Below are positions 7,751 through 44,035 of a stretch of 64,000 nt of DNA, piece after piece. Source of the DNA: Acanthaster planci (Eukaryota). The stretch spans positions 1 to 64,000 of the forward strand of contig NW_019091362.1 of assembly GCF_001949145.1 (NCBI RefSeq), in the 5' to 3' direction. Below the pieces are notes generated by a model. That model made no database searches. It saw nothing but the letters and a program-made list of their open reading frames with translations, and was not told the origin of the DNA. The position numbers and the translations under genes are program-made. Numbering within the stretch: the first letter of the stretch is position 1; each line of letters starts with the position of its first letter.

Positions 7751-8851
7751 TAGACCGGCTCGGGAGAATGGACCAAATTAATGCCTGAGCAGCAGGTGAG
7801 GGCATTGTGGGTGTTCATTCTCCTGAGTCGGCCTTTAATGTTAGTTTAAGACCGACCAATTCCATTCATTAATGGTATTCATTCATTTTAGAGTAAGTGA
7901 AAGGAACGAATATACAGTAAATTTCAAAGGATTTTGTTCACGAATTTTACTTTCTTTTTCCCAAACACTCCCGTCAATTGATGGTATATTCTTGTGCAAG
8001 TGCATGTAGCCCAGAAGAGTCTCCCATTAATATGAGCCGTTTTCCAATACTCAACTTCTTCTCCGTCTCAGGCTTCGTGGCACTATCAGACTTACTATTG
8101 CGCTTATAACGTCAAATTTAGGAAGGAAAAAACAGTTGAAGGCTCAGACGGGGCCCAAGTCGAGTATGGGAAAACGGCCATGGACTTAGCGCGCGTAGCG
8201 AATTCCACCTGCCGCGTGCATACAGACTCCTGACCAATCGGAAACGATTAAACTGTATCGTATTAAGGTGCCAGCGCGTGCTTTACGTAGTGGCATTACT
8301 AATGTTAAAACATGGTCACTTGACGCCCGGGTATTTATGAATAAGGGAATAAAATGCGTGTCTGGCCTATCTAAAGCGTGCATTTAAGGCGGGTCTAGGA
8401 GAATGGACGTGATGCCCATTCATAAAAACCTTTTTAGTCAAAGAGTCAAAAGAAATTACTATATGACTGATGTTCAAAAGATTTTTTCTAGAATTTCACT
8501 TTCATTTTCACAAATACCCCGTCCATTGTATGGATTAGTCCTTGTACAAGTTGTCAGGAAGAATCTCCATGTATACTATGGGCTTGGCACCTGCGTGGCG
8601 TGTTCAGCGTGCCGCGTTGCACACAGGCTCTTGACCAATTGGGTGGCTTAAACTGTCTTGTATCCAGGTGCCTGAGCGTGTGTTTTTGGGTTTTTTTTTC
8701 AAATTTAGGGGGCATAATCAAATGTTGATACACGGTCACGTTGAGCGTTGTTTCATAGGGAAACTGTCTGAGGTACTTATGAATGTTTGTTTAAATGCTT
8801 AAGACAATAAAGGAATCTGCTGGAATTACAATTAGAATTACAATATTTTAC

Positions 8852-11800
8852 CTTGCGGCGTTCTGACCGGCTGCACTCTTTTATCAAGGCTCTTAGCTCT
8901 CGAACTTGTCTCTCCAGTTCACGTGCTTCCATGCCATCTGATGGGGACACCCTTGTTTTGTTGATTGGCAAAATGTGCTCTGGGTACGCCTGATTAAAGT
9001 TCCACTGAACTGTATCGTGACAAGACTCTTTACCCTTTGGTGTTACATTGTATGCAACTGGCCCATTCCAGCTGAATCCCAGGTAAAACGTCACAGTTTC
9101 TTGGCTGGGAGTGTGTTTCAAGTACGGATATGCCAATTTAACCCTTATCTTCATGCCCTTGGAAAGATGAACCAGAGAGGTATTACTGAGAAGAGTACCT
9201 TCCAAGCGAAGTAGTAATTTCTTTACAGCCTTTGACTGCCAGAAATTGTCATGTTCAAGCTTTCTTTGAGTCGCAAGGATTTCGTGGATGTGAACGAAAC
9301 TCTGGAGATCTTTCCCGTGACCCAAAAAGAAATGGGTTCTTGGTTTCACATCAAAACGTGCGTGACGACTAAACTTGTCTTCGCGCGACGATTGTTGGCC
9401 AAGGTGCTTCTGCCGACCGATCCATCGGTTCTGTAATCTATCTATGTGAGTTGATAAATCTTCCCTATCCCTTCTTTCAGAGATTGCATCAGGTATTGGC
9501 CACAGAAACATCATCATGAAGAAAGGTGGCCAGCAGTCAGTTTTACTATGATCCAGAGTATTTAACGGCCTGACAAATTGCTGATATACCTCGTCAGCTG
9601 ACATTACTTGCTCCCCTGCTGAGGAGAGCGCCAGGTGTATGCATACAAGATGCCTCAAATCAAAAACGTTGTAATGATCTGAATTTGTCAAAAGGAGGTC
9701 CCGTGCTTCTTTCAGATTGGCCCTTTGACATTCTTTTGCCAGATTAAATATGTCACCAAAACTTCTGCACTGCAGTTTTATTACCNTTTCTTCGACGGCA
9801 CTCAGCAAGACTTTCTGGGTCTTGGTCGATGTCACTGCTCTTTTCTAAAGGTGAGGGTTCACCATAGTATTCTTGATATGTCTTTGAGTATGTTCTCATT
9901 TTTTCTCTCATTTCATCCAATTTCTGTCCGGCAACATTTGCAGAAGAGCCGTCCTTGTAAAATGTTAAGTTGTCATCCATGATATGTAGTACAGATTCCA
10001 CTCTCTGTTTCAATTCTCTGATTCTCGAGCTGCAATCCTCATCGAATTTGGGATAACAATCTGGAGGCAGACGTAGATTCAGGAGGTATTTTCGGAGAAT
10101 GTTTATATCACCCTTGGTTCGGAATGGCTCCATAGCACATTGGATGACGTTTAGTAGTCTGAAGGCGACATCCACTTCTGCATATAAACCGGTGTACTCT
10201 GTCTTTGCATGGTTTCTTTGGAGACATCATATGACTTGTGAAAGGCCTCCATGGCTTGGAATGACAGGGAGATAACTTGTTTACACACGTCAGAAGAAAG
10301 GACTTGTTGCTCAACCAAATATTTTTTTGTTATGGCATTGAAATGTGTATTGTACACTCGGCCTTTTGTATCCCAAAAGTATGACTTCTGAGGGTTAAGT
10401 TTCAATGCCTTCTCGGCAAACTCTACGGCCTTTCCGAAATTCTTTTCTTTCAAATGAAGTCTCGCAAGCTGCTGTGCAATGAAGGCATCCTGGAGTATTT
10501 TGAAACCTGTTTGTAGTATTTCAGTGGCCTTTTTTGGTCCTTGCTGGTTGCAATTGTAGACGTCCTGAATGAGACGGGAGAAATCAGTTTTTGTATTATC
10601 ACCAGGATTCAATCTTGTGCGTCTTACAAGTAGATCGCGTGCTATTTTTGCCATGTCTTTTCTGCGGTAGGACCATGACCTCATCAAGTCACTGTTCAAA
10701 TACTCCAGAGCTACGTCCGCAATCGTTTGTCTCTCATCCTTTAAGATCTGTTTTAAAGCTTCTTGAGCTACACTTTCATGCAGAATTTTAATCGTTCGGT
10801 TCTCTGTCATCAACACGATGATTTTGAAAGGGGCTGAAACTGACTTTTCCCAATTAGTCAAAACTCTGCGGTTTAAATATGCCGTCTTTTGGAGTTTCAC
10901 GCCAGCCTCCATGAATGAATCACAACATGAGATAGGGATTTCTGCTTCATGCATGTACGAGTTCAGAAAGGCACACATTTTTATCAAACCTTTCTCAGTT
11001 TTGTTAGCATCACTGTGACGAAGTATCTGAGACACAACATCTTTGATGTAGTCCTTGTTGAATTCCTCTTTCATGACCATAAAGGCGAGCAAGTTCTGAG
11101 GCTTATAATGACCCGTTTTTAGTTTGCTTTCCTTGTCATCAAGCTCAATGTACTTACTCTCGAACCATGCTCTTTCTGCTTCCGTAAGTTTTTGCACCAA
11201 TGGAACATAAAGATCCGAATTGGTTTTAATCTGCTTGATAGTTTCTATTGGATCCATGTTCCGCTTGCAATGAAGAAGAACGCAGACAACCCCTCCCTTC
11301 ATAGGAGTATCCTTTGATGCCTCTTCTAGCTCTACAATTAAATCCAGGACTTCAACGTCATCAAAATCATCGATTAGAACGCACACAGGAGGGATATCAG
11401 CATTGTACTCCGTATATCCGTACCGTCTACACCCCAATATTTGGTTTACCGTATTGGTGGTTATCTTGTCAACTACGATGCAACGGTGATCCTTGTGAAG
11501 TTCCCATAAAATCTGTCGGCCAAAAGTGCTACCTCCAGCGCCAGGTTGGTGCAAAAGAGTAACTGTTACGATTAAGCTGTCTTCGCTCTTTGATCGGTCA
11601 AGTGGTTTCACTACTTTCTGAAGTGTTTTCCCGAATCCATTTCGCTTTAGCACGTGCCCACAAGCATGTGGACGTTTTCTTTCTCTTTCATCTATGACAA
11701 AATTCCACCAGTCAATCTTTGCACCCCGGTAAAAGTTAAGTTCTTTCTTTTCTGCAAACTTTTGATAGCCTTGAATTGATTCATCAACATCGGTGTTTTC

Positions 11801-14800
11801 GCACTCGTTTTTGCAAATAACGGTTATGTCATTCCATTCTTCCTTCTGTTTAGCGGGAAGAAAGCAGGAATTTCCCGGCAAGCAGAAAGGGAGTTCATGC
11901 TGCCCAATTTGGTTTACTGCATGCATTCGCATCATAATACGGTTGATATCTTGCCATTTCAGTCCAACCACACTCCTCTCATCGATTTCAGCCTTGCTAA
12001 ACCACTTTTCCACACCTTTTACAAACTGTGCGTAAACATTCTCATCTTCAGTGATACATGTTATGTTCTGTATGCCTTGGAAAGATGAAGACATTTTTCT
12101 GAAAATGTCACAAACGATTCCCAGGTCCTGATCGGACAGGAGCAAGAACACAATAGCAGCACGTCCTTTTGGTATAACCGAAGAGAAGAAAGAGATTGAT
12201 GCTTCTACATCTCGGCTACGTTCTTTGTTCCATTCTTGCAGATCCATGGGAAGGCTTTCAATGGTTGGGTTGTCCTCTCGCCCGTTAGCGAAAAGCCAAA
12301 GTGTCTTTTCAGGAAATCCGATACTGGTTTGTAGATCTTCTTTTGACTCGATGTTTTTGAACAAATTTGGTTGCTGCAGAGTGACCATTCTATTGTCATG
12401 GTAGAGCTTACACAGTCCATCCGACAGAGACTGTGAATCAAAGTCCAAGACGCTTGCCCATTTGATTGTCTTAATAAATTCAACATTTCGGAAGTATTCA
12501 GTTTTAGAACTCTCCAAGGAAAGAGAGGGAGCTTTGTTTGCAACCAGTAACGGATACGACTGGTCAAGTTCTCCACACTCATCGCCCGTGAGTAAAGTAC
12601 GAAGTCTGGTTTCTCCGTTCTGTGATACTTGACCAATGGACGCTTTGATATCTGACGGAATATCGCGCTGTGTTTGCAAATATGTTGACGTTCCATGATG
12701 TTCTTCGTTATACTTTTTGGACGGCTGGGGCTCTGAAGTCATCTGGTTTCCAGGAAACTCTCCGCTTGTTTTGTGTGACATGGCCTCACTTGGTGAATCC
12801 GGAGAAAATTGAGGTGGTTTTACCCTGCAAACTGAAATACTCTCTCTTGGCACTGGAGAAAATGTTAGCAATGTGGTATCTTGTTTGCTCTTGCTTTCAC
12901 CTTCGTTGGTAGCCAATGGGTTCTGAAATGGTGTTATTCTATCTTCGGGTGGGATAATTATATCTGCCTCTGTGGATTCTTGGCCTCTGTTCTCTCCATA
13001 CAGTGCCCTTTCTTCCTTCTCAGATGCTTTTACAAGGGATGTTTGATGTTGCTCACTTGGTCCAATCTGCTTAATTTTCGTCTTCCTACCCGCCTCATCT
13101 TTCTGTCGAGAGGACGGCATTTTTGGACGGACCACGGGTTGGGATGCTGCCTTGGTATGGAGTTTTTCAGGTTTTTCAACAACTGCATCAGCTAATACCT
13201 GATCAGAATCCTCTTTGCTTTCCCCAGTAGAAGATAGCAACATTTGCTTACTGTTTGAAGGAGAGGTCAATTGACGCTTTTCCGATTTCAACCAGTTATC
13301 TTTATGATGTAAGATGAGTCTTATGTGCCCCTTTCTCATATCAAAATCTTCGTGTAGTTGGTCTTTGTTGTATATTTTTAACTCCTCACCGTTTATCTCT
13401 TCCTCATACAGCTCACGTGCAACAGAATCTGGTACACCAATACCAAGAAGCCACATTTTTACATGCTCCTTAGTCCAATCTGACATACGTACAGGCAACG
13501 TCTCTTGTTTTAGAGTATCTGCAAAAATAGTTTACATGAAATTTGGTTTTCGTGAAGAACATAGCATTCAAGTTATGCAACTTTGAATAATTTTGAAGAT
13601 AATTAAATACGACAGAGCCTAGTTTATGAACTGCTTTCAACCATTTCAATTGTAAGTGTGCGGAAATGACATGAGAAATTTGGCAATTCCTTTTAATTCA
13701 AGCACATTTAAATCACTAAATGACATAAAATTCTGTCGCAATTGTTGCAAGTGTGGACCCCACTCTGTGCATCAGGTATTAATTCTGAATACTTTCATAA
13801 CTTAGATATTTTCAATATGAGCGATTCCTAATACGGTGCGCAAAGAAGCGTTTGCCGCAGACAGGCCACTTTTCAAGTTCATGATCGACTTGCTACCGCG
13901 ATTAAGCGCAATTCATACGTATTTTGGGAATATTTGATTGAGGCGCTCCCTACACAACAAAAAAAAATCATGTTGACTACCTAACACCTATTTGCTATTA
14001 ACAGTTTCCAATTTTCAACCAAGATCAACAAAAATTCAGAAACAATTCAAGTTTTCTGCCCAAAGCGCAGTTAGCGAATGAGTTTTTTGACTATTTGTCT
14101 CACTATGCAATGCAAAAAGGCCTGTCCATGACGACCTCTTGGTTGCGTACTGCATTGTGAATCGCCTTTAGTAATAACATCATATGCTTTTTACCTCGTC
14201 TTTTAACAGTCAAGTAAAACAACTTGTATGAGTGACAATACGTTATTCACCCCTTTCGACATCTTTTCGACTGCAAATTTACCTTTTTGTAACTTTTCAA
14301 AGAATCTGCAACCTTCCTGGTAATCACTTTCAAGTATTGTCACTTTGATGGCCATGTTGCTCTTGTCTTCCGTTGTAAGTTCATCAGTAATCAGAATCTC
14401 GGTGAACGTCTTGGCTAGTTCGCCACTGGTGTACATGTTCCACAGCTTATGCAGACCTTTCTGACTTTTGACGTGCAAAACAAGTTTCACAGACCCCATT
14501 TGAGCATGTGCAACCTCCGCGTCGAATTCAACAAAAGCTTTTGTGAAAAGGGTCATCATGTGGGTCTTGCCATGTTGCCGTAATCCGTGTTTTATCATTT
14601 GCACGATTGTTGCATTGCTTTCTCTGTGGGTCTCTCCATTTTTCATTGCATCGACATCTACTGGTATCTTTGCTGGAAAACGTAATAAGTTAATTAATTC
14701 ACAGTTAGAAATTTGTGATAACGTGAATGCTCCAAAGCAATATTCATTCAATATTCATCAAATGTGTGTTTAATTTGCCATAAACAGCGGTACCGTAGTT

Positions 14801-17800
14801 AATCTGGATATTCGTAGTCGGAAATTGTTATTCAAGGAGGGTTGGCACAGGTTTATGGAGTCGGCAAAAAATTGTCACTAATTGAAACTGATATTAGTAT
14901 ATTTTAGTTTGTTAGTTTAGGTAAACTTACACCTAGATTTGTGAAAAATATACCCACAGTAAACAGAACATCAACAATGTTTGGAAACATATTGGTGAGA
15001 CTGCCAAATATTTCGAAATATCCAGCATGTACCGTAGTTAAACGAAGAAGCAACTGCGGGGCCAAGTATAATAGGGCTATTGGTGACTCCTTTAATGGTC
15101 AAGTTTTGAATTTGAACGCTTGATTGTGTAGGCCTGTTGGGATCAGCAGCATAGCCGCTCGTCGAAGACGATTTCTGAGACAATGAGGGGCTTTCTTCAC
15201 CAGCTGAGACGTCTTCCTGCGTTGGCTTTCGTTCAGGTTCCAGTCGCTTTTCTGTAGAATGCGTGAACCAAGTGAAACATTGAGTGAAAACAACACAACA
15301 ACAGATTTAAATGGCGCAACATGTGACCTTAAAAATAAACTGTTACAGTGAAAGCACATTATAATTTCGATTAACCTACTGCACTCGACATTTCGATTTA
15401 AAAGTTTCTGGGAATGCCTATCAACAGCATGGACACCTGGTGAAGATGATATCTGATATGCTGAGGAGTGTTCTTCAGATGCCCAGGCATCTTCTGACGT
15501 TAGATTTTGTTTAGGTTCCTGTTGCTTTTCTGTGAAACAATAAGAAGGAAAGCAGTGAGTCTTAATTGAAGCTCAGCTTAATATTCAGTAACTCTTAAAA
15601 ATACAAGGATTTTTTGATGCGCGGAGTGTAAGAGAAACTTTGAGTTTCAACAAATTGGTGCGCATATTTTGTGGCCACTTTAAAAAAAAAACAAATTAAA
15701 CCCATACGACATGTTTAGATAATCTAAATTAAAACGCTTTGAGAAATGCTGAGCCGATTTCACAAAGCTGGATGTTACCATGGAGAAGTATCCGGTTTGT
15801 CATTTAAACACATCCCTGAAAGCGCTTCGAAAAAATCTGGATACAAAAAAAGTGTGAACCTGTTGTGCTATTTCCACAGCGTGTAATTTCACAAAATGTG
15901 AATAAAGACTTACATGTAGTTCAGATAAATTCATAGCACAATGTGTTAACATTTAATCAATTTTGTTTTCCTGTTGTCCTAACTTCAGTGGAGTTCATTG
16001 AATATGTCAATGCCATGTTCAGGTAGCGTGGCGTATCTTGGTCTTTAGGCTACGAGGGATATGAGGCAAAACGGGATATTTTTCCCCAAAATAAATTTCC
16101 CATATTTTCACAGTTAAAAGAGCCCTCATCCTCCCCGTGGTAATACTACTTCATATGCTAGCGCTTTCCATTCCGAGAAAAAAGTGGAAGCAAGTCTTCA
16201 GGGGAACTTACCCCACCCCTCTCCTCTGAATATGGGTCATCAATGCATTTCTATTACCGAGTGATTGTTTCTTAGCATGCGATATGAGGCATTAGGCCTA
16301 CCTGATTTTCGTTTCTTTTTTCTCCCACCCATCAATCCAGAAACAAGGCGCAGTTCTATGGTAGCGTCATGTTCAATGCTGTGATCAGCTATGGACAGGG
16401 CATCACAAAGCTGTACATCAACAGAAATGCAATGACAGATAAAACATCAAGCACATGTTCAAAGGTAAGCACAAAGAACGGACTTCATGAAGACATAAAG
16501 CGTTAATTGAAGAAAAATTTTCCACTTTAATGAAAGACTGACATATTTTGCTTGACGTACCTCACAAATTTCTATTCTTCCCCATAGAAAGTTTGCACGG
16601 CTGCCATCTTGCAGGGCAGTTCTTTTGTTCCACAGTGTATGCACAAAAAGAAGTTTCCATGTGGAACAACACACCTGCCCTGCAATATGGCTACCAGGCA
16701 AATCCTCTATAGTGTAGAAAACTCCGGAAAGGAGTACGTGTTTGAGTACATTTGTAATACGATAACGCTAACATACCATGCTTTTTATCACGCCGCCTCA
16801 GGTAATTCTTAGAGGAATATCATTTTAAAATCATCATACAAACTAGATATTTGTCATCACAGAATCCAAATTGCATATTGAGAAAACAGCAACACAAGGA
16901 AAGGTCCTTCGAACAGTGTAAAGAGGAGTCTTTGGTATAAATTAAAAACAAGCCCTGTGTGTAGTGAATGTTGTACACATTATGCATTTCATATTCACCT
17001 CAAGGCCTTTACGGGTGAATAAATGTTGCTTCTCAGAATCGATGCCAAGTCTCTCTTGTAACAATCTCTTAAGATCAGCGACTGAGGTGGACGGACGCAG
17101 TTGCAGACAGATAGAGGATGCCCAAGAAGTGGAAATGAAGATTTGGATCTTCCGTGTTTTGGTGCTTTGACTGGAACTAGTAAGGTGATAGTGGAAACAC
17201 AAAAAAATGAAGGATATACATGTATCTTCTTAAGTTGAAGCTGAATATGCAAACGCATAAATGCACATGTGAAAAATGACGTAAGNNNNNNNNNNNNNNN
17301 NNNNNNNNNNNNNNNNNNNNNNNNNNNNNNNNNNNNNNNNNNNNNNNNNNNNNNNNNNNNNNNNNNNNNNNNNNNNNNNNNNNNNNNNNNNNNNNNNNNN
17401 NNNNNNNNNNNNNNNNNNNNNNNNNNNNNNNNNNNNNNNNNNNNNNNNNNNNNNNNNNNNNNNNNNNNNNNNNNNNNNNNNNNNNNNNNNNNNNNNNNNN
17501 NNNNNNNNNNNNNNNNNNNNNNNNNNNNNNNNNNNNNNNNNNNNNNNNNNNNNNNNNNNNNNNNNNNNNNNNNNNNNNNNNNNNNNNNNNNNNNNNNNNN
17601 NNNNNNNNNNNNNNNNNNNNNNNNNNNNNNNNNNNNNNNNNNNNNNNNNNNNNNNNNNNNNNNNNNNNNNNNNNNNNNNNNNNNNNNNNNNNNNNNNNNN
17701 NNNNNNNNNNNNNNNNNNNNNNNNNNNNNNNNNNNNNNNNNNNNNNNNNNNNNNNNNNNNNNNNNNNNNNNNNNNNNNNNNNNNNNNNNNNNNNNNNNNN

Positions 17801-18864
17801 NNNNNNNNNNNNNNNNNNNNNNNNNNNNNNNNNNNNNNNNNNNNNNNNNNNNNNNNNNNNNNNNNNNNNNNNNNNNNNNNNNNNNNNNNNNNNNNNNNNN
17901 NNNNNNNNNNNNNNNNNNNNNNNNNNNNNNNNNNNNNNNNNNNNNNNNNNNNNNNNNNNNNNNNNNNNNNNNNNNNNNNNNNNNNNNNNNNNNNNNNNNN
18001 NNNNNNNNNNNNNNNNNNNNNNNNNNNNNNNNNNNNNNNNNNNNNNNNNNNNNNNNNNNNNNNNNNNNNNNNNNNNNNNNNNNNNNNNNNNNNNNNNNNN
18101 NNNNNNNNNNNNNNNNNNNNNNNNNNNNNNNNNNNNNNNNNNNNNNNNNNNCCATGAGTTCATGGAAAAAGTATGTATTATGTTCTCCCGCTGAATTGTT
18201 ATAAGTCTTAGTGACTAGACATTTTACTCGCTAAAAATATATATTCCGCGGTGGTTGCAAATACAACTGCATGGCAATGCTTTGATGATGTCAAACGACA
18301 TCGTACTAAAAATAAGTGCTGAGGAATTGCTGTGATCAGAATAAAAACTAATGATGTTGATCCATTTTGCTCTTTGTTTGCAGTCACCAGTTCTTAGAAC
18401 AGCACCTTCTTGCGCTTCTTGCTATATGAAAGTGCATTCGATGGATCAATAGAACTGCACTGAGTGTACCATGCTGAGATGCTGTTTGACTGACACTTCT
18501 GAGAATGGATAGGCTAAATCAAGGGCGATATTTTACTTCAAGTACGAAAACTACGAGCAATTGCAAAAAAGGACTGGTGGCTATATCACCCAATTAACAA
18601 TTGAAGTTAACCTTATTTTATTTACCTGCGTTTAGAATTTAATACTGTTGCTTGTGTATTCTGAGCACCAGGCGACGTTGGAGTTTCAATTTCTGATGAG
18701 GCATTATTAAGAGGGCGTTTCGTTGACAGCACTGAGAGAAAAGCCTTTTGCTTAGACTTCCGAACACCTTTCGTTCCGGTTACCAACTTGGCCTGCGAGT
18801 GGTCATAAGTGACCCGGGCGACCCTCACCGCCTCCTCCCAATCTGCATATGTCTTCAAAGTCAT
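8852..18864 (-). CDS. SAMD9-like: SAMD9-like STAND NTPase gene A. Exons: 18864-18626, 17176-16999, 16410-16302, 15529-15437, 15251-15033, 14672-14283, 13518-8852; terminal exon unresolved. Two apparent frameshifts (~10210 and the n at 9786).
   Basis: SAMD9 motifs: LLTGD..LD..Y.LLVANK, IKWASVLDFD, WLFANGR, ICKNECE, FYRGAKIDWWNF, P-loop HQPGAGGST..QILWEL, Walker B VLIDD, FMVMKEEFNKDYI, AFIAQQLAR, SYFWDTKG, VTFYLGFSWNGPVAYNV. All junctions are GT-AG with compatible phases (2,0,1,1,1,1,0), and every exon except 15529-15437 has a counterpart in gene B. Confidence 0.88.
13300..13498 (-). other. SAM domain of gene A
   Basis: DWTKEHVKMWLLGIGVPDSVARELYEEEINGEELKIYNKDQLHEDFDMRKGHIRLIL fits the SAM pattern W..E.V..WL..IG...EEI.G..L. 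Confidence 0.85.
14283..14672 (-). CDS. Gene A exon encoding a TRADD-N-like domain
   Basis: AEVAHAQMGSVKLVLHVKSQKGLHKLWNMYTSGELAKTFTEILITDEL; phase 1-1 exon homologous to 38165-38551. Confidence 0.65.
16302..17176 (-). CDS. Gene A exons 2-3 (17176-16999, 16410-16302) encoding a ubiquitin-like domain ending LMGG
   Basis: IQIFISTSWASSICLQLRPSTSVADLKRLLQERLGIDSEKQHLFTRKGLE|LCDALSIADHSIEHDATIELRLVSGLMGG-RKKKRKS aligns along ubiquitin. Confidence 0.85.
18626..18864 (-). CDS. Gene A first coding exon
   Basis: MTLKTYADWEEAVRVARVTYDHSQAK... is homologous to 35317-35561; cag|gtaaat donor, phase 2. Confidence 0.8.
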
Positions 18865-35316: not shown

Positions 35317-38300
35317 ATGGCTTTAAAGACGTATGCAGACTGGGAGGATGCTGTGAGAGTCGCCCAGGTCACCTATGACCACTCGCAGGCTAAGATGGTC
35401 ACAAAAACAAAGACGGTACGGAAGTCGAGGAAAATGGCTTTCCTCTCCGTGCTCTCACTGACCAAGGGTGGCGTTTCATCAAAGCAAAGCATCAACAAGC
35501 ACCCCACTTCTCCGCCAAAGAGGATAAAACAAAGAGTGAACAAATCCGCAGGAAAGATGTGGTATGTGTATATTTATTAAGGTGATATTATGAGGAAAAG
35601 AACCCCGAATGTTTTACAAGCATCGTGAAAAATTGTAATAGACGTCCTCTATGATATTTAATCTTCCCTTGGTGAACAGATCTATGACGCCGATCGTCAA
35701 CAGATTTTCCTGTGCTCTTAGCACAAAAGTCATTAAAGTGAATACTTGCTTTTGCAACTTTAACTGGCTTAATATTAAATTGTGCGCACGGTTGGGCATT
35801 AAATGTGTTGGTTTCTTACCTTTTCCTGTCCAGTGTGAAACAGGGAAGTGCGTGCTGCATACAGATAATAATTGATACTCCACTCGTGTCAACAGTTTGC
35901 CTGCAACTTCCTTCTTCAACCTCGATTCTAGCTGTGAAAGAACTACTTCAAGATAGGCTTGGAATCAGTCCTGAAAAACAACATCTTTGTACGAAGAGAG
36001 GATTTGAGGTCAGTGACAAAAACACAGTATACCATGCAATTAGTGCAGTTAGCAAATAATTTCGGTTTAGATCACTTTGAGTTTCTATTTTCAATAACTT
36101 CAGTATTTCCTATGCAAGCTGCACGAATTAGATGGGGTGTTATGTCAGTGGATTGAATATTTTTTGACTTAATACAATCAATTCTATTCAAACTGAAGTA
36201 GGCCTTTGGCTTCTAACAGCTGTTGCCATTGTGTAGCGGGTGCTCTATATCACCTGTGCATAAATCACATCTTCAATAAATCTTTAAATATCTTGCCGTC
36301 CCTATTTATTCAATGTTATCATGGCCTACGTGACAGTTGGTCTTTTTCGTGTGAACTGTCTTTTTCGACGGTGGTCTTGCAATCCCGCTACTGTTTATTG
36401 TTCTAAATGCACCCTCAACCCATTAAATTTTATTCGCAAAGAAACCACAGGAAAAGGTAGTAAGCTTGTACCCAATTGCTGGTCTAGACTTATACCCTAC
36501 TCTGCTGCCAAGGCCTTCTCACGCGCGTATATAAAAAAAAAAATTGGACTTGCAGTGCCTTGAATCAGCTTTTCGAGATCACTGAATCCAGTTACGGTCA
36601 CTTTACCTAGCCGAATACAAGGCTTGCCCGGCAATGCCCGCCTTTGTTCTCCCTTGCGTCAATAGAAGCGAGCCAACCCGCACATTCGTATTCGGCTCGG
36701 TAAAGTGGCCGCTTTTTCATACAAAGGCGTAGCAAGTCCAGGTTTTTATATACGTCCATGGGCTATCTAGAATTACCCAGTAACGTGCCTTCTGGAAAGC
36801 CACAAAGCTTCAAAGAAGTCCAACAGCATTTACAGGGTCGTTTATGGGTCACAGGCAGGGTCTGGGCAAGCTAGGCAGCGCTTGTGTGAACAACCTTGAT
36901 GACTGCCATCTGGAAGATGTTTGTACACATTCCCATGGGAATTGGCCAGACCCCAGCTCGGTTATATTTTTTCTGGCTAAGGGGAAGCCCCTATGTTTAC
37001 GGTGACTAAACCAGGCAGTTCGGCATGAAGGTAGGATATGAAAGGAGGTGATCATAGTTGGCCGTAAAATTTTCTTTCATCAAGTAATTAGCAGAAACTC
37101 CGTCTAAAAAAAGACGGTGGGCGCTCCACGCAGGGTTTCAAAAGTAATAATAATAGCTACATATATTTGTTATTTCTGGAACCAGCTCTGTGACGCACTT
37201 TCACTAGCGGATCACAGTATTCAGCAAAATGCCAACATAGAATTGCGCCTTGTCTCCGGCTTGATGGGTGGAACACGTTAGTATCCATTTACATTTTTTC
37301 AGTGTTTGCTTTAAATTGACTTTTAATGATTAATTTTGCTGTCAGGATACAAATTAGTTGTATTTTGAAGAGTAAGGGCACATCTCTTGCTTCAGAATAT
37401 GCAGACATCAGACGTAATATGTTCAGCCTCCCCTGGAAAAGATGTTGTGTATAATTTAGTTGTTGATCAATGTGACAATGCAGGGAAGCAAAAAGACAAA
37501 GCAGAGCAGCGGTCACCAGATTTTTCGAGTAAAGAAAGAATCCCTGATCATGGAAGACAAGATGATACTCAGCAAGACCCAACTGCACCTGATGAACAAC
37601 CATCATCCTGTACCAGCAACACATGGGAAAACACCGTCATGCAGGGCCACTCAGAAGGCATCACATTTGGGGAAGTACACTCACGTACCAATGTCTATGG
37701 TATGTATGTAGGGCCTATGTGTGCTTAAATTTAAAGATCTAAATTTACATAAGATGTAATACAGGAGAAATTATCGTTCACTAATTGATAGAGTTCGTCC
37801 GACATTTGAATTATTGCAACTGTCAAGTGCACTATTTCGATATCCAAAATAGGAGCTATCTGACGTATAATATGACCATAAAAATGTGGAGAAACTGAAA
37901 GGCATTTTCCGGTAAAATAATTTCAACGGCCAGTTTCCTTTGTACAGTAAGCAATAAATGTGCCTCTAAAATAAGCATGAAGCTTTATGATTATGACCAC
38001 GTGTTGGCTACTTATTCAAGAAAAGTTATATCTGTTTCTGAACCACACGATTTTGTGGTCGCACATCGGGAGGAAACAAAAAATTAATTTTATACAATTC
38101 TTCAACCTCAGAGCAACACTCTTTTGCACAGATTACTGAAGCTAAATAACTATTATTTCAACAGCATTACCAATTACTGCATGCGTTTCAAGAGATGACA
38201 GGATCGATGATTATTTGACAACAGCCGTAATCGATACCCTGAAACTACTGGCAAGTCAGTCTGGAGTGAATGATGTGAAAAAAATGTTCAACGACGTTTT

Positions 38301-41300
38301 GGAGGCATGTGCCGGAGAAATGTATCGAGTAGAGTTTGGGCCCTTGAGGTTTATTACGCATGTCGAAAGTCGTGCCGGCCTTGAAAAACTGTGGGCTATG
38401 TTCTCCACCGGGGAGCTCGCGCAGAAGCTAACTAAGGTCCTAATAACAGATGAACTTACAACAGAGGAGAAAAGTAGTATCGTCATTCAGGTAGAAATAC
38501 TTCGAGAACATTACGAGGAGGGATGCCAATTCTTTGAAGAATTACCAGAAGGTACAAACATATATTTTGCATTACGCGTGTGTTGCAACATTTTAGGACA
38601 AGTGACATTGGTTATTAGTATCAATTGAAAACAGAACCTTTGATTCAGAAGGAGATGAGTCAAATGGCATTGGAAATTTCGTCCCAGTATGTTAGACTTT
38701 CCAATTTAATTTGCGTTTCGAGTTCTGTTTTTCAAGCTCTAATTTGTTTCCATTTTAGAGACTACTTCGGCGGATCAACCGGTGCATATGTCTGAGTGGT
38801 CCAAATACGACGTGAAACACTGGCTAAAAACTATTGGTGTATCAGATGTGGTCATTGATAAAGTATTCGACGAGGCAATTGACGGGAGGGTGTTAATCTT
38901 GTATACATCAAATGATCTGCAAGAAGATTTCAACATGAACAAGCGAGACTTACGTCTCATTTTGTACAAACGGGAAGCCTTAAAACGCCAACCCAAGTTG
39001 AGTCCAAACCCAAAAGAGAAAGAAGTTGTTGAGTACAAAGCAGAACGTGCACTGGTTCAAGTACATCCGATTCAGACATCCCCAAGCCCATCTGACACAA
39101 AAACAAATCAAACTGTAACCGATATGCCAGAACTGTCAGTTCGGCCTAAAATACCAAAATCCAAAGCGATATCTTTACTAAAGAGGGGGCATCTGGAGAC
39201 AAAACACACTCAACCAGTTCAACGTCTTCATCAGAATATCGCTAAGGTACCCAACGTTCAAGATGACCCCTTAAACCCTGCAAAAGGATTTGAACTTTCT
39301 TTAGATTTACCTTCTGAATATAAAGGAGCCCATGTTTCACCACAAAGACTATTGACAGCCAAAAGTGGGCAAGATCCTCTTGAGGTGACTCAAAAGATGA
39401 TGGAATTAATTTCACTAGCTCCTCAACCATCTACAGACAACCAACAACAAGATGTTGCATTCATGATACTTGGCAAATCTCGAGCCCAAGAACAGGGGTC
39501 AAATCCTTCCTTACAGGTCAATTACCCAGAACAATATCGCGACGAAAATGGAAAATTGACGCCAGGGGATCATGAAGCAAGCTCAATTTCGCCTACTACA
39601 CTGGATGCATCACCGAGAACAAATGTGGAATTTGACGATGCACAAATTCATGATGACAAAAACTCTGACAAGGTAAAAGAGCAAGCTCGTGATCAGGGAA
39701 CACCATCACAAGCGTGTCGAAACGCAGCATCGTCCAGCAAATTTGCTTTGCCTGTAACAAAGTTCAGTCAAAGTGACGAAGCTAAGGTTCGCTTACTTCT
39801 TACAGGAGATGAACGTGGAGAGCTTTCCCAATCGTTATACTCCGTTCTCGTAGCAAATAAGCTGGACGCCCCAAGTGAACCTACTGAATCTAGAATTGAC
39901 ATCATTGCCCAACAGTTTGAATTCATCAAGTCCATCAAATGGACAAGCGTCTTGGACTTTGATTCACAGTCTCTGTCGGATGGACTGTGTAAGCTCTACC
40001 ATGAGAATAGAATGGTCACTCTTCAACAACCGGACTTGTTCAAAAACATCGAGTCAGAAGAAGATCTGCGAACCAGTATCGGATTTCCTGAAAAGACACT
40101 TTGGCTTTTCGCTAACGGTCGAGAGGACAACCCAACCATCGAGAGCCCTCCCATGGATCTGCAAGAATGGAACAAAGAACGTAGCCGAGATGTAGAAGCA
40201 TCAATCTCTTTCTTCTCTCAGCCTTCGGTTATACCAAAAGGACGTGCTGCTATTGTGTTCTTGCTCCTGTCCGATCAGGACCTGGGAATCGTCTGTGACA
40301 TTTTCAGAAAAATGTCTTCATCTTTTCAAGGCATACAAAATATCACATGTATCGCTGAAGATGAGAGTGTTTATGCACAGTTTGTAAAAGGTGTGGAAAA
40401 GTGGTTTAGCAAGGCTGAAATCGATGAGAGGAGTGTGGTTGGACTGAAATGGCAAGATATCAACCGCATTGTCATGCGAATGAACGGTGTGAACAAAATC
40501 GAAGCCTACGAACTCCCTACACACATTCCAGAAAAGTGTTTCCTTTCTGAGAAACAAAAGGACGAATGGAATGATATAACCGTTGTTTGCAAAAATGAGT
40601 GCGAAAACACCGATATGAACGAATCTAACCCGGGTTATCGACGGTTTGCAGAAAAGAAAGAATTGAACTTTTATCGCGGTGCCAAAGTTGACTGGTGGAA
40701 TTTTGCCATCGGAGAAAAAGAAATGAATCTTCATAGACGTTGCGGCCACGTGCTGAAGCGAAAAGGATTCGGAGACGTACTAAGGAAAGTCCGTAAACCC
40801 CTGGACAGTTCAAATACTGAGGACAGTTTAATTGTCACTGTGACACTCCTTCATCAGCCAGGTGCCGGGGGTAGCACGTTAGCACGCCATATTTTGTGGG
40901 AGCTCCGCCAAGAATTCCGTTGTATTGTCGTCAACACGGTCACTGGCAATACTGCAAGTCAGATAATGGAGGTGAGACGGCATGGATATGAAAAAGGTTG
41001 CAATCAGAAAATCCCTGCTGTATGTGTACTCGTGGATGACCTCGATGATGTTGAGCTTCTAGACTTGATTGATGAGGTGAAGGAAGTTTCTAGAGATATC
41101 CAGCTCGATGGTGGGGCAGTTTGTGTCGTCCTGCGCTGTAAGCGTTGTGCGGAGCCAGAAACGTTAACAGACGGTGAAAGGAGAGAGTTGTACATTGCTT
41201 TGACTCAAAAGCTTGACGCCCGAGAAAAGGAATGGCTGGAGCGAAAGTACCGTGAATTACAATTAAAGGAGAAAGAATTACAATCTACCGAGTACAAACC

Positions 41301-44035
41301 TGAACATCTCCTCGCATTTATGGTGATGCTGAAAGAATTCGACAAGGACTATATAACTCATGTTGTGTCGGAGATTCTTGGTGGAATCTCTGAGAACGAA
41401 TTCAAGTTGATAAAGCTATGTGCGTTTCTGAATTCCTACAGACCAGAGGCCGCCATTCCTATTTCCTGTTGCGACTCAATGATGGACAGAAAGATACTAG
41501 TCAGTGGCAGAACGCGTGTACACTCGAGACCCTGGGAAGGTTCAGTGTCCTCCTCGTTCAAGATCATGGTGGTCGTGGAAAACAACGAACTTAGGATCTT
41601 CCATGAGAGAATAGCAAAAGAAACTTTGGAGCAGATCCAGATGGTTACAAATCAGTCCCTTACAGAGGTTGCACTGGAGTTTTTGAATTGTGAACTGTTT
41701 AGTTCGTGGTCATATTCCAAAGAAACCCTCGTTAAAGCAACGCATGACCTACTTGTCAGGAGAAAAAGGATCCGATTCGGTGATGACACCGAGACAGACT
41801 TTGCGGTTATCATTCAAGATATTTACGAGAATCATGGACCTGAAAAAGCAATCGAGATCCTCCAAGTAGGCTTTGAGAAGCTGGAAGATGCATTCATCGC
41901 TCAGCAGCTTGCGCGACTTTGTCTTAAGGAGCACAACATTGGGATGGCACATATCTATGCTGACAAAGCAGTGACGCTTGAACCCCAAAACTGCTACTTC
42001 GTTGATACTAAGGGCAGAATTTACAAAACAGAGATGTGGGATATCGTGTCAAAGCGTATGGAAGAACAGCAAGTTATCGATGATAAAGAATGCGATAAGT
42101 TACTTTCCCTTGCATACCATGCAATGGACGCCTTCCACAAAACATACGACGTTTCTAAAAAAGGAAGGGAGATCGAGTACACGGGTTTGTATGCCGAAGT
42201 AGATGTTGCCTTCAGATTACTGCAGGTCATTTACACTTGTGTAGAGCCCTTCAGAACAAAAGGTGGACAAAAATATTTGCAGGAATACCTTCTGCAATTG
42301 ATCAACCCTTCAGATCCAAGCTATCCAAAACTGAGTGAAGACTGTCATGGCCGCATCATGACTTTGAAAAACCGAATAGACTCTGTGCTAAACTTACTTG
42401 ATGACACCTCAACATTCTGCAAGGGAGATCCCACAAATGAGCAACAGAAACTTGATGAGATGAAAGATCGCTTGAAGGAGTACTTCAGAATATACGAAAG
42501 ATACTATGGAGAACCAAAGCCGATACAACAAAATCGGTATCGAAATCCTAGAAGTCTTGCCGAATCTCGACGTCGGCAAGTCAAGCAAGCCAGTTGTGGT
42601 ACCTTTCGTGAAATATTTGACCTTGCTCGAAATAAGGGATTGCAGAAGCTCAAAGAATCTTACAAACTGCTGTTAGAGAACTCAGATCAGTACAACTTTT
42701 TCGACTTGAAGCATCTTGTTTGCATACACTTGGCGCTCTCCTCAGCTGGGGAGCAATTATTGCCAGCTGATGAGGTGTATCAGCAGTTTGTTCGGCCGTT
42801 GAATGCCAAAGATCACCGCAAAACAGACTGCTGGCCACCTTTCTTCATGATGATGTTTCTGTGGCCAATAGAGGATGTTACCTCTGAAAGACGAGATAGC
42901 TGTGATTTGACCTTTTACATTGATGAACTAAGAGAGAGATTTTCAGGTGCTGAGAATTTCAGGAAAGGTTTGACTAGCGAAAAGCGACCCCCGCGATTTC
43001 AGACAAGAGCACGAACACACTTTTTCTTGGGACAAGGCACAGATCTTCAAGTATTTGCCCATATCAATGAGCTCCACACTACTCCAGGTAAAATCGACGG
43101 AGCAGACAGCGAAGATGATTTTTGGTCGTCTGATCTTGTAAGAAGTCGATTAGCTCGCTTGGAAGGAACTTTACTGAATCCTACATCCCTGGTGCACCTC
43201 TCTAAGAAGGGAAAAATCAACATCAAACTGGCAGCGCCGTTTAAACGTCAAGTGCCAAGCCAAGAGATCGTCACGTTCTACCTCGGATTCACCTGGGATG
43301 GCCCAGTTGCGTATGATATTAAGGTAAAGGGGAAAGAATCTCGTGACGGTACAGCACCACGCTTTCACCAAGCTTACCCAAGTTTGAACGTACCTTCTGA
43401 AAAATCCAAGACTTCACTTTCCCGTAAGTTATCCAAGATTGATAAGCTTCGGGAGGAATGCCAAAAGCTGCGAGGCAAACTGGAGGGCGTAAAAGCTTCT
43501 TCTAAACACCATGTGAAAGTCAAAACCAAAGAGGTACCGGTAAATATTTTTCTATTATTAATCAGTCTATTTATAACTGGGATTTACTGTATGTCCAGTT
43601 CCGCACCATTTCCACCTCTCGACCATCGAACGTTGCTTGACTTGAATGTAGTGCACCTTCGGGTACCAAAGTGATAATCAATTAGCCTTATCTGTGGGAC
43701 TTCACGAACGGAAATCAGTGAATTCCTTCACTTTTTATATTTGGTAAAGACCTTATGAAACATTTCATTTCTTAATTTATTAATATAACACTGTCAAAAG
43801 AGATAGGCACGATACTTGTGTGTAAAAGCATTCGATAGATACACTGATCTTGTATACATTATACTCCATTACACAATGCCAAGCAAGAACATGATTTACT
43901 TACATCGTTTGGCAGGGATGTGTTTGGAAACCCACGAAAGACGCGATTCAGTTGTACAAGCGCCAGTTGGAGGAAAAAAACGATGAACTTCGTCGTGCTT
44001 TAATGGAAGACACGTCATCAACGGAGGACTTTTAA
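35317..44035 (+). CDS. SAMD9-like: SAMD9-like STAND NTPase gene B (~2000 aa). Exons: 35317-35561, 35834-36008, 37186-37276, ~37484-37699, 38165-38551, 38759-~43539, 43916-44035.
   Basis: Uninterrupted 1630-aa ORF with SAM (EWSKYDVKHWLKTIGV), IKWTSVLDFD, FYRGAKVDWWNF, HQPGAGGSTLARHILWEL, VLVDD, AFIAQQLAR and FYLGFTWDGPVAYDI. The exons join in frame (6015 nt, GT-AG). The exon 4 acceptor and the large-exon donor each have in-frame alternatives. Confidence 0.92.
35834..37276 (+). CDS. Gene B exons 2-3 (35834-36008, 37186-37276) encoding a ubiquitin-like domain ending LMGG
   Basis: IQIIIDTPLVSTVCLQLPSSTSILAVKELLQDRLGISPEKQHLCTKRGFE|LCDALSLADHSIQQNANIELRLVSGLMGG-T. Confidence 0.85.
38165..38551 (+). 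CDS. Gene B exon encoding a TRADD-N-like domain
   Basis: GEMYRVEFGPLRFITHVESRAGLEKLWAMFSTGELAQKLTKVLITDEL; phase 1-1 exon. Confidence 0.65.
43916..44035 (+). CDS. Probable terminal exon of gene B (GCVWKPTKDAIQLYKRQLEEKNDELRRALMEDTSSTEDF*)
   Basis: tttggcag acceptor; phase 0 matches the upstream donor; 40 open codons with coiled-coil-like composition. Confidence 0.6.
   Translation, partial: GCVWKPTKDAIQLYKRQLEEKNDELRRALMEDTSSTEDF

Follow-up and report, generated by a model that had tools for sequence, protein, structure and literature searches.

Starfish SAMD9-family proteins without a detectable AlbA_2 domain carry a candidate adaptor module

Relatives of SAMD9 and the Acanthaster locus

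Human SAMD9 and SAMD9L have been studied almost entirely as tRNase-based inhibitors of translation, and their layout runs from a SAM domain through a disordered segment, the AlbA_2 tRNase, and a SIR2-like domain to the NOD, TPR, and OB regions. The excerpted text of a study of human SAMD9 (PMC13600222) places a disordered segment after the SAM domain, describes a SIR2-like domain that has no NAD-binding lid, probably does not bind NAD and forms a dimerization surface, and states that activity requires the SIR2/SIR2 and OB/SIR2 interfaces. Not every relative retains the nuclease. Mekhedov, Makarova and Koonin (2017; PMC5445408) noted that AlbA_2 has been lost in some family members, and their Additional file 1 has just two rows for the sea urchin protein XP_003727489.1, SAM and SIR2_2, and gives a Saccoglossus AlbA_2 at Pr 98.06. 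That paper, the sole relevant match in the literature on SAMD9 and echinoderms, contains 0 occurrences each of TRADD-N and ubiquitin and limits SAM to vertebrates, which the starfish proteins contradict.

The domain order of the starfish proteins has itself been catalogued. In the excerpted rows of supplement file 4 of Kaur, Iyer, Burroughs & Aravind (2021, eLife, PMC8195603), the gene under study is given as UBI+TRADDN-DEDD2+SAM+STAND+TPRs, and its paralogs XP_022081709.1 and XP_022107081.1 are given in the same way. The table names neither SIR2-like nor OB, and SAMD9 has 0 occurrences in the main text, so neither the tie to SAMD9 nor the exchange of a nuclease for an adaptor was noted there. 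The A. planci protein that does appear in that main text, XP_022106408.1, was considered as one of the present genes and discarded; it is a 383-aa TRADDN-Bac+TM protein.

Related arrangements are found in bacteria and in teleosts. Avs5, an antiphage protein of the SIR2-STAND-sensor type, resembles the starfish proteins in having a SIR2-type domain followed directly by a STAND NTPase and helical repeats, with no AlbA_2 (Legrand 2025, in excerpt), and the SIR2 domain of Avs5 is described as the effector in the consulted portion of PMC11897194. Unlike Avs5, SAMD9-type SIR2-like domains are without the NAD lid in the human excerpts (PMC13600222), and the starfish proteins have eukaryotic adaptor domains as well. 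The teleost PYD-bearing SAMD9 proteins P0043 and P0045 carry PF02758 and have no AlbA_2 match; here AlbA_2 was lost independently a second time, again in company with an adaptor, P0043 nesting within AlbA_2-bearing vertebrates. They differ from the starfish case in that the adaptor is Pyrin rather than TRADD-N and the event is recent, within vertebrates.

The window analyzed here is a stretch of 64,000 nt from Acanthaster planci that contains two neighboring SAMD9-like immune genes, gene B on the + strand and gene A on the − strand. The gene B open reading frame (38782-43674, +) encodes SAM at aa 3-66, a linker at aa 67-333 and the SIR2-like domain from aa 334; the NCBI model P0003 is 100% identical to it and has ~380 aa extra upstream. 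The upstream exons of P0003 map onto the window by tblastn, and GT..AG junctions join them in A. planci RNA reads. The first coding exon (35317..35559, +; P0003 aa 1-81 at 100% in tblastn), for which 35317 is not necessarily the 5' limit, encodes a conserved N-terminal ~80 aa without an assigned fold. The ubiquitin-like domain is divided between 35835..36006 (tblastn; RNA joint 36006>37184) and 37184..37276, the latter with an internal ...LRLVSGLMGG and then a basic run. Exon 4 (37484..37698; tblastn, RNA) encodes a polar spacer, and exon 5 (38164..38549; RNA joints 37698>38164 and 38549>38757) the TRADD-N-like domain, assigned from AF2 and structure matches. The large exon (38757..43531; GT..AG joints 38549>38757 and 43531>43914) then covers SAM, linker, SIR2-like, P-loop NTPase, TPR, and OB, and the last coding exon (43914..44032; tblastn, RNA) the end of a coiled-coil tail, all on the + strand.

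Gene A has a corresponding series of exons on the − strand: a first coding exon (18626..18864) and the first part of the ubiquitin-like domain (16999..17176), both placed by tblastn and RNA, the end of that domain (16302..16410; ...LRLVSGLMGG plus basic run, RNA), a TRADD-N-like exon (14283..14672; RNA), and a large exon (8816..13518). Both genes are spliced and expressed, as RNA reads attest. The window sequence has two frame changes in the large exon of gene A, near 10204 and 9785/9786, and these sites were checked in RNA reads from three studies (X13, X16, X17). The 1 nt extra in the window at 9785/9786 is absent from 10/10 reads (X13), from 8/9 reads at 9785 (X17) and from 4/5 at 9786 (X16), and the 2 nt extra at 10204 are absent from 19/20 reads (X17); the frame of the gene A transcript is therefore continuous.

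In a phmmer search of the PDB with gene B, six human SAMD9 chain sequences were matched in one stretch with a best E of 9.6e-99, the best stretch pairing query 312-1515 with chain residues 216-1433. At the level of sequence, this comparison establishes homology to human SAMD9 across ~1,200 residues, from the SIR2-like domain through OB, and marks this stretch as a SAMD9/SAMD9L core. The SIR2-like domain (39781..40580, +, the end being approximate) is collinear with the human SAMD9 chains; its start, '...VRLLLTGDE...VLVANK' from aa 334 on, aligns with the human 'lltg...lvtnk', and 296 query residues stand against 290 chain residues without a lid-sized insertion. The starfish and human proteins share collinearity from the end of AlbA_2 to OB, a single large core exon, an arrangement as tandem paralogs and, probably, an N-terminal SAM; the starfish proteins differ in being without AlbA_2, in having additional N-terminal exons (~380 aa) that encode ubiquitin-like (Ubl) and TRADD-N-like domains, and in a C-terminal coiled-coil tail. 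The gene B SAM domain (38788..38979, +, ORF aa 3-66) scores below the Pfam cut-off (SAM_2, E 0.0066, 17 bits against 20.5) and is modeled by AF2 as a five-helix bundle at pLDDT 75-81.

AlbA_2 and the linker that occupies its place

The original prediction held that AlbA_2 is missing in both paralogs, and Pfam, a family HMM, hhalign and a six-frame scan all failed to match it there. At E<=10, Pfam finds no PF04326 (AlbA_2) in the linker or in P0001 and P0002; seven asteroid and ten other echinoderm proteins are likewise without a match, in a scan that did match 7/25 proteins, mammal, amphioxus and Glandiceps controls among them. Pfam on its own was not accepted as a test, since it overlooks the domain in SAMD9s of gar, bird, Saccoglossus and molluscs; an HMM specific for SAMD9 AlbA_2, built from 16 tetrapod sequences and run with --max, recovers the domain in those proteins at 1e-12 to 1e-119. 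Across 78 proteins this HMM matched 45 (E 9.6e-12 to 1.3e-129), among them hemichordates (1e-54 to 1e-57), amphioxus and molluscs, and none from the 13 asteroid rows or from the remaining echinoderms. Alignment of the linker profile to two AlbA_2 profiles with hhalign gave a probability of 0.0 (E 0.91 and 0.84), against 100 (E 9.6e-52) for the positive control, and the phmmer alignment to human SAMD9 begins only at gene B query residue 312. A six-frame scan of the 64-kb window for AlbA_2 reached a best E of 1.4-1.7 at <5 bits. AlbA_2 is undetectable in gene A, in gene B, or elsewhere in the window.

The segment separating SAM from the SIR2-like domain lies at 38980..39780 (+, ORF aa 67-333) in gene B and at 12611..13300 (−, P0002 aa 67-296) in gene A, where ~12610-13290 had been proposed. 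It had been described as P/S/Q/E/K-rich, poorly conserved between the paralogs apart from V.PK.P, and disordered in appearance; the first two descriptions are borne out, and disorder is predicted. The residues P/S/Q/E/K/T make up 49% of the gene B linker and 56% of that of gene A (36% in the rest of B), and hydrophobic residues 22% and 20%, respectively (35% in the rest of B). Identity between A and B is 44% in SAM, 20% in the linker, and 82% in the SIR2-like domain, which is the best-conserved part and holds most of the invariant columns. The sole conserved island between the two linkers is V-R-P-K (39139..39150, + in gene B; 13121..13132, − in gene A, located by comparing A with B), which is followed in gene B by a basic patch and lies in a lysine-rich surrounding. 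This motif is present in the linker of 10/12 distinct asteroid genes versus 0/14 other members of the clade described below.

Both linkers are coding. RNA contigs span that of gene B (38757-39973, with no joint inside) and that of gene A (12427-13518, unbroken), so each is unspliced in the mature mRNA, and frames as open as these arose in 0/20,000 shuffles, the other two frames of each containing 9-16 stops; the linkers are open beyond chance and have been kept so. Their length varies from ~100 to 270 aa across asteroid paralogs, with large indels. The 140 aa before SIR2 have a hydrophobic content of 0.14-0.27 in 23 members of the AlbA_2-less clade, whereas the same segment in 75 AlbA_2-bearing proteins has a mean of 0.34 (range 0.26-0.42). 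An AF2 model of SAM plus linker, from 12 sequences, has pLDDT 31-45 over aa 73-333, with no strands, one short helix and no confidently folded domain, against the 75-81 of SAM in the same model; the truncated SIR2-like piece at aa 334-420 is also <50 there, which weakens the argument from low confidence. The linker is predicted to be disordered, and composition and indels agree, a prediction from 12 sequences being unable to prove disorder. At E<=0.001 Foldseek found nothing for this model, a result that is uninformative on a linker of pLDDT <50, and its weak matches (E 0.011 and weaker) were to SAM domains only. A search of the linker against 1.84 billion representatives had a single match, P0078 (E 7e-6), which was dismissed as compositional and at chance level, since by BLAST it matched none of the other 191 proteins in the set.

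Upstream domains and their distribution in the family

The ubiquitin-like domain of P0003 (gene B) matches Pfam ubiquitin (PF00240) at E 2e-5 and 24.7 bits, just under the cut-off of 25.4, and that of the ortholog-like P0004 exceeds the cut-off at 29.2 bits. The exon-5 domain was modeled by AF2 at pLDDT 91.3 from a 15-sequence alignment, and TRADD-N was its top Foldseek match (E 0.045). Superposition on TRADD-N 1f3v_A (VIA) gave Z 8.5 and rmsd 3.2 over 110/131 residues, the next unrelated chain reaching 6.2, and among 48,161 chains TRADD-N 1f2h_A came first at Z 6.7 versus 5.5, values of 6.7-8.5 lying in the range reachable by unrelated models. The nearest Atlas clusters are PF20694 (0.95). 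Pfam TRADD-like_N has no match in the gene B product at E<=1; it gives sub-threshold matches in 4/7 asteroid relatives (P0005, P0007, P0008 and P0009; E 0.027 to 1.4e-4), the best at 22.1 bits against a gathering cut-off of 23.7, and in Amphiura (P0016), and P0010 has a precomputed PF20694 annotation. The model points to a two-layer alpha+beta, RRM-like fold that can be superposed on TRADD-N, whose superfamily comprises PF20694 and PF09034.

Among 192 family members, AlbA_2 is present in 159 and the TRADD-N-like domain in 18, and none has both; the two are mutually exclusive across this set. The starfish architecture is conserved in asteroids, echinoids, ophiuroids, crinoids, and one hemichordate. 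In the tree, an AlbA_2-less clade of 24 rows (SH-aLRT 99) comprises all sampled echinoderm SAMD9-like proteins together with one Ptychodera lineage, and the AlbA_2-bearing hemichordates are placed elsewhere, outside this ambulacrarian clade, so that hemichordates hold both kinds of SAMD9 lineage. Seven of the 24 members have neither AlbA_2 nor the TRADD-N-like domain in their gene models, which may be truncated or real. On the sequence tree, the loss of AlbA_2 is clade-wide and ancient, and is not private to genes A and B: the original prediction was right that both paralogs lack the domain, but the loss is far broader and was already known in principle. The finding is correct but modest, the architecture having been catalogued before; what is new here is the exclusivity of AlbA_2 and the TRADD-N-like domain, the age of the clade, and the asteroid-specific V-R-P-K linker motif.

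Candidate output of the starfish proteins

The proposal that these proteins must act through another output is reasonable as an inference, and the ubiquitin-like and TRADD-N-like domains of the upstream exons provide a concrete candidate. AlbA_2 is absent and the TRADD-N-like domain never occurs together with it among the 192 family members; the likely output is therefore adaptor-mediated signaling. We consider it somewhat probable that both genes encode expressed SAMD9-family STAND NTPases without AlbA_2, with a predicted-disordered linker instead, that signal through a module of ubiquitin-like, TRADD-N-like and SAM domains and do not cut tRNA. By analogy with human SAMD9, a ligand would trigger opening of the starfish proteins, and assembly driven by SIR2/SIR2 and SAM contacts could cluster the N-terminal TRADD-N-like domains. 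Once clustered, these domains might bring in a downstream partner through induced proximity, in the way that TRADD-N engages the TRAF2 MATH domain, and so lead to ubiquitin/NF-kB-type or cell-death signaling. The flexible linker would serve as a tether, and V-R-P-K as a docking or regulatory site.

The SIR2-like domain might instead be the effector, consuming NAD+ as in bacterial Avs5, with the N-terminal modules serving only to regulate or localize. The AlbA_2-less core of SIR2-like, STAND NTPase and TPR does resemble Avs5, which the excerpted text of Legrand (2025) describes as structurally similar to SAMD9 and without AlbA_2, and no part of the starfish proteins is better conserved than the SIR2-like domain. 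Such conservation is equally expected of an oligomerization interface, though, and the starfish domain is, on alignment, collinear with a human domain that the excerpts of PMC13600222 describe as lid-less and dimer-forming, which makes this reading improbable. Also doubtful is a nuclease acting in trans, in which case SAM-SAM contacts, the TRADD-N-like domain or V-R-P-K would recruit a separate effector, AlbA_2/Schlafen-like or of another kind. SAM and TRADD-N are protein-recruitment modules, as the consulted part of Kaur et al. (2021; PMC8195603) has it, and the two kinds of SAMD9 lineage coexist in hemichordates; against this, no echinoderm name occurs among the 120 listed of 153 proteins (1,113-3,544 aa) matching the hemichordate SAMD9 AlbA_2, and the six-frame scan of the 64-kb window is empty, both of them weak tests of the idea.

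It is very unlikely that the linker is a degenerate or cryptic AlbA_2 remnant that folds on RNA and keeps some nucleic-acid function. It does sit at the AlbA_2 position, is lysine-rich near V-R-P-K and, in gene B, has about the length of the human SAM-to-SIR2 interval, but the null hhalign result, the indels, a hydrophobic content of 14-27% where real AlbA_2 segments average 34%, and the near-complete lack of secondary structure in the AF2 model all speak against a remnant, and the disordered post-SAM segment that the human excerpts describe (PMC13600222) could simply have been retained. That the genes are decaying relics or artefacts of gene models, so that the missing domain is meaningless, is suggested by the two frame changes in gene A and by the absence of its protein from the protein-search results; it is largely refuted, and has the least probability of all, given the continuous transcript frame, splicing and expression of both genes, open linkers, and an architecture conserved from asteroids to a hemichordate.

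Returning to the adaptor as output, a broader and more speculative scheme, to which we give a minor share of credence, is that Ambulacraria possess two SAMD9 lineages, the second of which predates the divergence of echinoderms and hemichordates and has traded the effector that cuts tRNA for a TRADD-N adaptor. The output of its sensor core would be a TRAF/ubiquitin-type signalosome or a death complex and not translational shut-off, the linker with its asteroid-specific V-R-P-K might be a site of regulated docking or cleavage, such as a tripwire for pathogen proteases, and the internal di-glycine ubiquitin-like domain could be released or conjugated on activation.

The sampled AlbA_2-less clade keeps the sensor and oligomerization core, and the adaptor is present wherever any N-terminal domain is seen, which suggests a multipurpose STAND platform whose outputs can be exchanged, as they are among the Avs proteins of bacteria. 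The starfish proteins offer a natural system in which sensing and activation are separated from the nuclease output, and could help to show what cores of the SAMD9 type sense in invertebrates. Their practical use is limited, the architecture being already in the literature and any function a prediction.

The two paralogs differ at one residue of the TRADD-N-like turn motif. TRADD, an adaptor composed of TRADD-N and a Death domain, is the best structural match of the exon-5 domain, whereas the starfish proteins have 12-14% sequence identity to it, no Death domain, and a fusion to a STAND sensor. The turn between beta2 and beta3 carries a small residue followed by Ser, which the excerpted text of Kaur et al. 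(2021; PMC8195603) calls the key determinant of TRAF2 contact. Because gene B has Pro in place of this Ser (G-P, at 38341-38343), its product may not bind a TRAF-type partner; gene A retains G-S. Ser is found at the position in 13 of the 15 aligned relatives, with Cys in one and Pro in gene B.

AlbA_2 in the two starfish paralogs

The large open reading frame of gene B, at 38782–43674 on the plus strand, encodes a protein 100% identical to P0003, the 2002-residue NCBI model titled 'sterile alpha motif domain-containing protein 9-like isoform X2 [Acanthaster planci]'. The second copy, gene A, lies in divergent orientation on the minus strand (10151–13498 plus 8777–9835). Both paralogs had been predicted to lack the AlbA_2 domain, and the searches agree. 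Pfam PF04326 at E ≤ 10 gave zero matches in the two large-ORF proteins (P0001 and P0002 for genes B and A) and in the isolated linker between SAM and the SIR2-like domain, and none in the 7 asteroid and 10 other echinoderm proteins scanned. Because this model is insensitive for AlbA_2 (7/25 matched; gar, bird, Saccoglossus, and mollusc SAMD9s were missed), a SAMD9-specific HMM was made from 16 tetrapod sequences and run with all filters off on 78 proteins. It matched 45 of them at E values of 9.6e-12 to 1.3e-129, two molluscs among them, with amphioxus at 1e-41 to 1e-45 and the hemichordates Saccoglossus and Glandiceps at 1e-54 to 1e-57. For 28 proteins, including all 13 asteroid rows, nothing was returned, and five gave chance-level values (E above 1); every remaining echinoderm row was a no-match or at chance level. 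Profile–profile comparison of the asteroid linker with tetrapod and invertebrate AlbA_2 afforded a probability of 0.0 (E 0.91 and 0.84), versus 100 (E 9.6e-52) for the control comparison of invertebrate with tetrapod AlbA_2.

We take the limits of the tRNase domain in human SAMD9 to be 156–385, such that residue ~371 would fall in its tail. In a phmmer search of the PDB, gene B aligns to near-full-length human SAMD9 only from query residue 312, equivalent to chain position 216/1434; this is about residue 371 if the chain extends to residue 1589, the SAMD9 length stated by Legrand 2025. A six-frame scan of the 64 kb with both AlbA_2 HMMs yielded chance rows only (best E 1.4–1.7, <5 bits); the TRADD-N-like exon was picked up in both genes in this way. 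Thus, an AlbA_2 exon is absent from the introns and from between the genes. Five assembly gaps (N runs at 2489–3073, 17286–18151, 21114–21793, 34158–35025, and 59315–60291) account for odd overlapping multi-frame 'ORFs' and low-GC bins. One is inside the first intron of gene A and another just upstream of the first coding exon of gene B; the large exons of both genes are untouched by any of them.

The linker between SAM and the SIR2-like domain

In gene B, SAM comprises ORF residues 3–66 and the linker residues 67–333, which match exactly the predicted interval of 38980–39780 (+); the gene A linker is at 12611–13300 (−). The start of the gene B SIR2-like domain, '...VRLLLTGDE...VLVANK', aligns with 'lltg...lvtnk' of human SAMD9. 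The original prediction described this interval as P/S/Q/E/K-rich, poorly conserved between the paralogs apart from V.PK.P, and apparently disordered, and the measurements agree with that description. The residues P/S/Q/E/K/T make up 49% of linker B and 56% of linker A, compared to 36% of the rest of gene B, and hydrophobic residues 22% and 20%, compared to 35%. Identity between the paralogs is 20% in the linker, 44% in SAM, and 82% in the SIR2-like domain, and among 12 asteroid sequences the linker varies from ~100 to ~270 residues with large indels. None of 20,000 composition-preserving shuffles of either linker was open and the other two frames hold 9–16 stops, so both are maintained as coding sequence. 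A search against 1.84 billion representatives produced a single match, which was rejected as a relative since it does not match the other 191 family proteins; the linker is thus without relatives elsewhere.

An AlphaFold2 model of ORF residues 1–420, computed from a 12-sequence asteroid alignment, has pLDDT values of 75–81 for SAM and 31–45 for residues 73–333, where one short helix and zero strands are predicted; the truncated SIR2-like piece in this model is also low. To control for alignment depth, a second model was computed: the domain encoded by exon 5 (see below) reaches a pLDDT of 91.3 from 15 sequences. The last 140 residues before the SIR2-like domain are 14–27% hydrophobic in 23 AlbA_2-less members of the clade described below, versus a mean of 34% (range 26–42%) in 75 AlbA_2-bearing proteins. 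Given the low pLDDT and low hydrophobic content, the linker is very probably intrinsically disordered. Human SAMD9 is likewise described in PMC13600222 as having a disordered segment after SAM.

The sole conserved island of the linker is V-R-P-K followed by basic residues (39139–39150 (+) in gene B; 13121–13132 (−) in gene A). Of 12 distinct asteroid genes, 10 carry it in the linker, and the remaining two have VRAK and VRPE. All 14 other members of the clade lack it, and the 285,594 residues of family proteins from outside the asteroids contain it just twice. Judged from these sequences, the motif is asteroid-specific, and it could serve for docking, localisation, or cleavage.

Upstream exons and a candidate output

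P0003 extends ~380 residues upstream of the large ORF, and five exons per gene in the window match it by tblastn. Reads from three RNA-seq studies under the same species label and one assembled run were aligned to both genes. GT..AG junctions in gene B are 36006>37184, 37276>37484, 37698>38164, 38549>38757, and 43531>43914 (+), and a single RNA contig carries exons 4 and 5 spliced onto the large exon, unbroken over 38757–39973 and covering the whole linker. Gene A junctions are 13518>14283, 14672>15033, 15251>15437, 15529>16302, 16410>16999, and 17176>18626 (−), with a contig unbroken across 12427–13518; they define two extra exons missed by tblastn, 15033–15251 and 15437–15529 (−). One gene A contig omits 15437–15529 and 16302–16410, which suggests alternative splicing of the N-terminal module. 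At two short intronic stretches, 16581–16927 (gene A) and 36705–37005 (gene B), RNA depth is very high, loose ends are numerous, and joints are of the 'opposite strands' kind. This pattern suggests a dispersed repeat that forms hairpins, possibly a MITE-like one, with transcription from many loci.

The upstream exons encode a conserved N-terminal segment, a ubiquitin-like domain, and a TRADD-N-like domain. The ubiquitin-like domain (Pfam E 2e-5) is just below the cut-off in P0003 and above it in the Patiria protein P0004. It ends in ...LRLVSGLMGG, after which comes a basic run (B 37184–37276 (+); A 16302–16410 (−)), a feature common to both genes and all five relatives checked that bear the domain. 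The di-glycine preserved inside a larger protein recalls ubiquitin-fusion precursors and could, by analogy, be a cleavage site.

The best structural match of the 130-residue exon-5 domain is the TRADD N-terminal domain, ranked first by Foldseek (E 0.045), in VIA-align (Z 8.5, rmsd 3.2 Å, 110 residues aligned; next unrelated chain 6.2), and among 48,161 representative chains (Z 6.7, the runner-up reaching 5.5 over just 73 aligned residues). Pfam TRADD-like_N recurs below threshold in 4/7 asteroid relatives and Amphiura, and the nearest ESM Atlas clusters correspond to PF20694 (score 0.95). The assignment is supported by supplement file 4 of Kaur 2021 (PMC8195603), where the architecture of this very gene is catalogued. 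The turn motif, a small residue and Ser, is kept in gene A; gene B has Pro at the Ser position (38341–38343 (+)). Across 15 aligned relatives, Ser occupies this position in 13, gene A included, and Cys in one. Kaur 2021 (PMC8195603) attributes the contact with TRAF2 to this Ser.

The sensor and assembly core are conserved in these proteins and the nuclease is absent. We consider it probable that activation-driven assembly would cluster the N-terminal Ubl/TRADD-N-like/SAM module, whose induced proximity may then bring in downstream factors, much as TRADD-N does with TRAF2, with the disordered linker serving as tether. The expectation of another output was judged correct, and the candidate is located in exons outside the large ORF originally considered; it is plausible and testable. 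An NADase output from the SIR2-like domain, of the kind seen in Avs5, would make use of the most conserved part of the starfish protein, but seems improbable: published structures of human SAMD9 (PMC13600222) indicate that the human SIR2-like domain is without an NAD lid and unlikely to bind NAD, and that its SIR2/SIR2 and OB/SIR2 contacts are required for antiviral activity. By phmmer, the starfish domain is collinear with the human one and has no lid-sized insertion; these observations together favor the assembly model. Recruitment of a nuclease in trans would also supply the missing activity and is equally improbable.

That the linker is a cryptic AlbA_2 remnant, as its position might suggest, is very unlikely given its predicted disorder and the null profile comparisons. 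Decay of the genes, which the two frame changes in the large exon of gene A (at 10204 and 9785/9786) might indicate, is more unlikely still. At 9785/9786, one base is absent from 10/10 reads of RNA source X13, from 8/9 at 9785 in X17, and from 4/5 at 9786 in X16; at 10204, two bases are absent from 19/20 X17 reads and the X1 contig, with zero depth in X13 and X16. Exactly the extra bases are missing from RNA at both sites; the frame is therefore continuous and intact in transcripts, and the frameshifts likely arose in the assembly or belong to the reference animal alone. At 40217 in gene B, the X1 contig and one X16 read lack 6 bases that the window has, with the frame kept. Numerous single-base differences between RNA runs in both genes suggest high polymorphism.

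Distribution of the AlbA_2-less form

Both the lack of AlbA_2 and the list of domains have been published already, separately. In the accessible portions of Mekhedov 2017 (PMC5445408), loss of AlbA_2 from some family members is stated, the sea urchin protein is in two rows only of Additional file 1, SAM and SIR2_2, the Saccoglossus AlbA_2 is tabulated at Pr 98.06, and TRADD and ubiquitin are unmentioned. The main text of Kaur 2021 (PMC8195603), as available, never uses the word SAMD9, and that of Legrand 2025 is silent on echinoderms, hemichordates, and invertebrates. A full-text search for 'SAMD9' and 'echinoderm' returned Mekhedov 2017 as the only relevant paper, and an explicit link between the two observations was not found in the literature searched. 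That link has four parts: the TRADD-N-like domain and the tRNase exclude each other, the AlbA_2-less proteins form a single ancient clade of ambulacrarians, the linker is probably disordered and carries the motif, and both paralogs are expressed. The finding holds but is modest, as it concerns a member of an already known SAMD9 variant type.

By iterated search, the exon-5 domain is found in SAMD9-like proteins of asteroids, ophiuroids, echinoids, crinoids, and one Ptychodera lineage. Among 192 family members, 159 have AlbA_2, 18 the TRADD-N-like domain, 15 neither, and 0 both. In a tree of 41 rows (620 residues of SIR2-like and NTPase; IQ-TREE quick search, SH-aLRT support alone, and a long-branched mollusc outgroup), Ptychodera P0014/P0015 and all echinoderm rows form one clade of 24 (support 99). 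AlbA_2 is absent in 24/24 of these rows; 7/24 have neither domain, possibly reflecting truncated gene models. The five hemichordate proteins that bear AlbA_2 fall in a group of their own (100) adjoining amphioxus (83). A search seeded with a Saccoglossus AlbA_2 domain, covering proteins of 1,113–3,544 residues, gave 153 matches; among the 120 of these that were listed, some of them unnamed, there is no echinoderm name. The simplest reading of these sequences is that a duplication preceded the echinoderm–hemichordate split and AlbA_2 was exchanged for TRADD-N in one copy; hemichordates would have kept both lineages and echinoderms, as far as sampled, the adaptor lineage alone.

Two changes suffice for the AlbA_2 label on the tree, the other being the Pyrin-bearing teleost form. 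P0043 and P0045 are such teleost SAMD9 forms without AlbA_2, and P0043 is nested in AlbA_2-bearing vertebrates; judged by domain content, this form is a second, independent nuclease-for-adaptor exchange. Two further arrangements, both duplications of domains in the N-terminal module, were observed in starfish: P0010 of Patiria has two TRADD-N-like copies, and in P0005, from another Acanthaster contig, TRADD-N is flanked by SAM on both sides.
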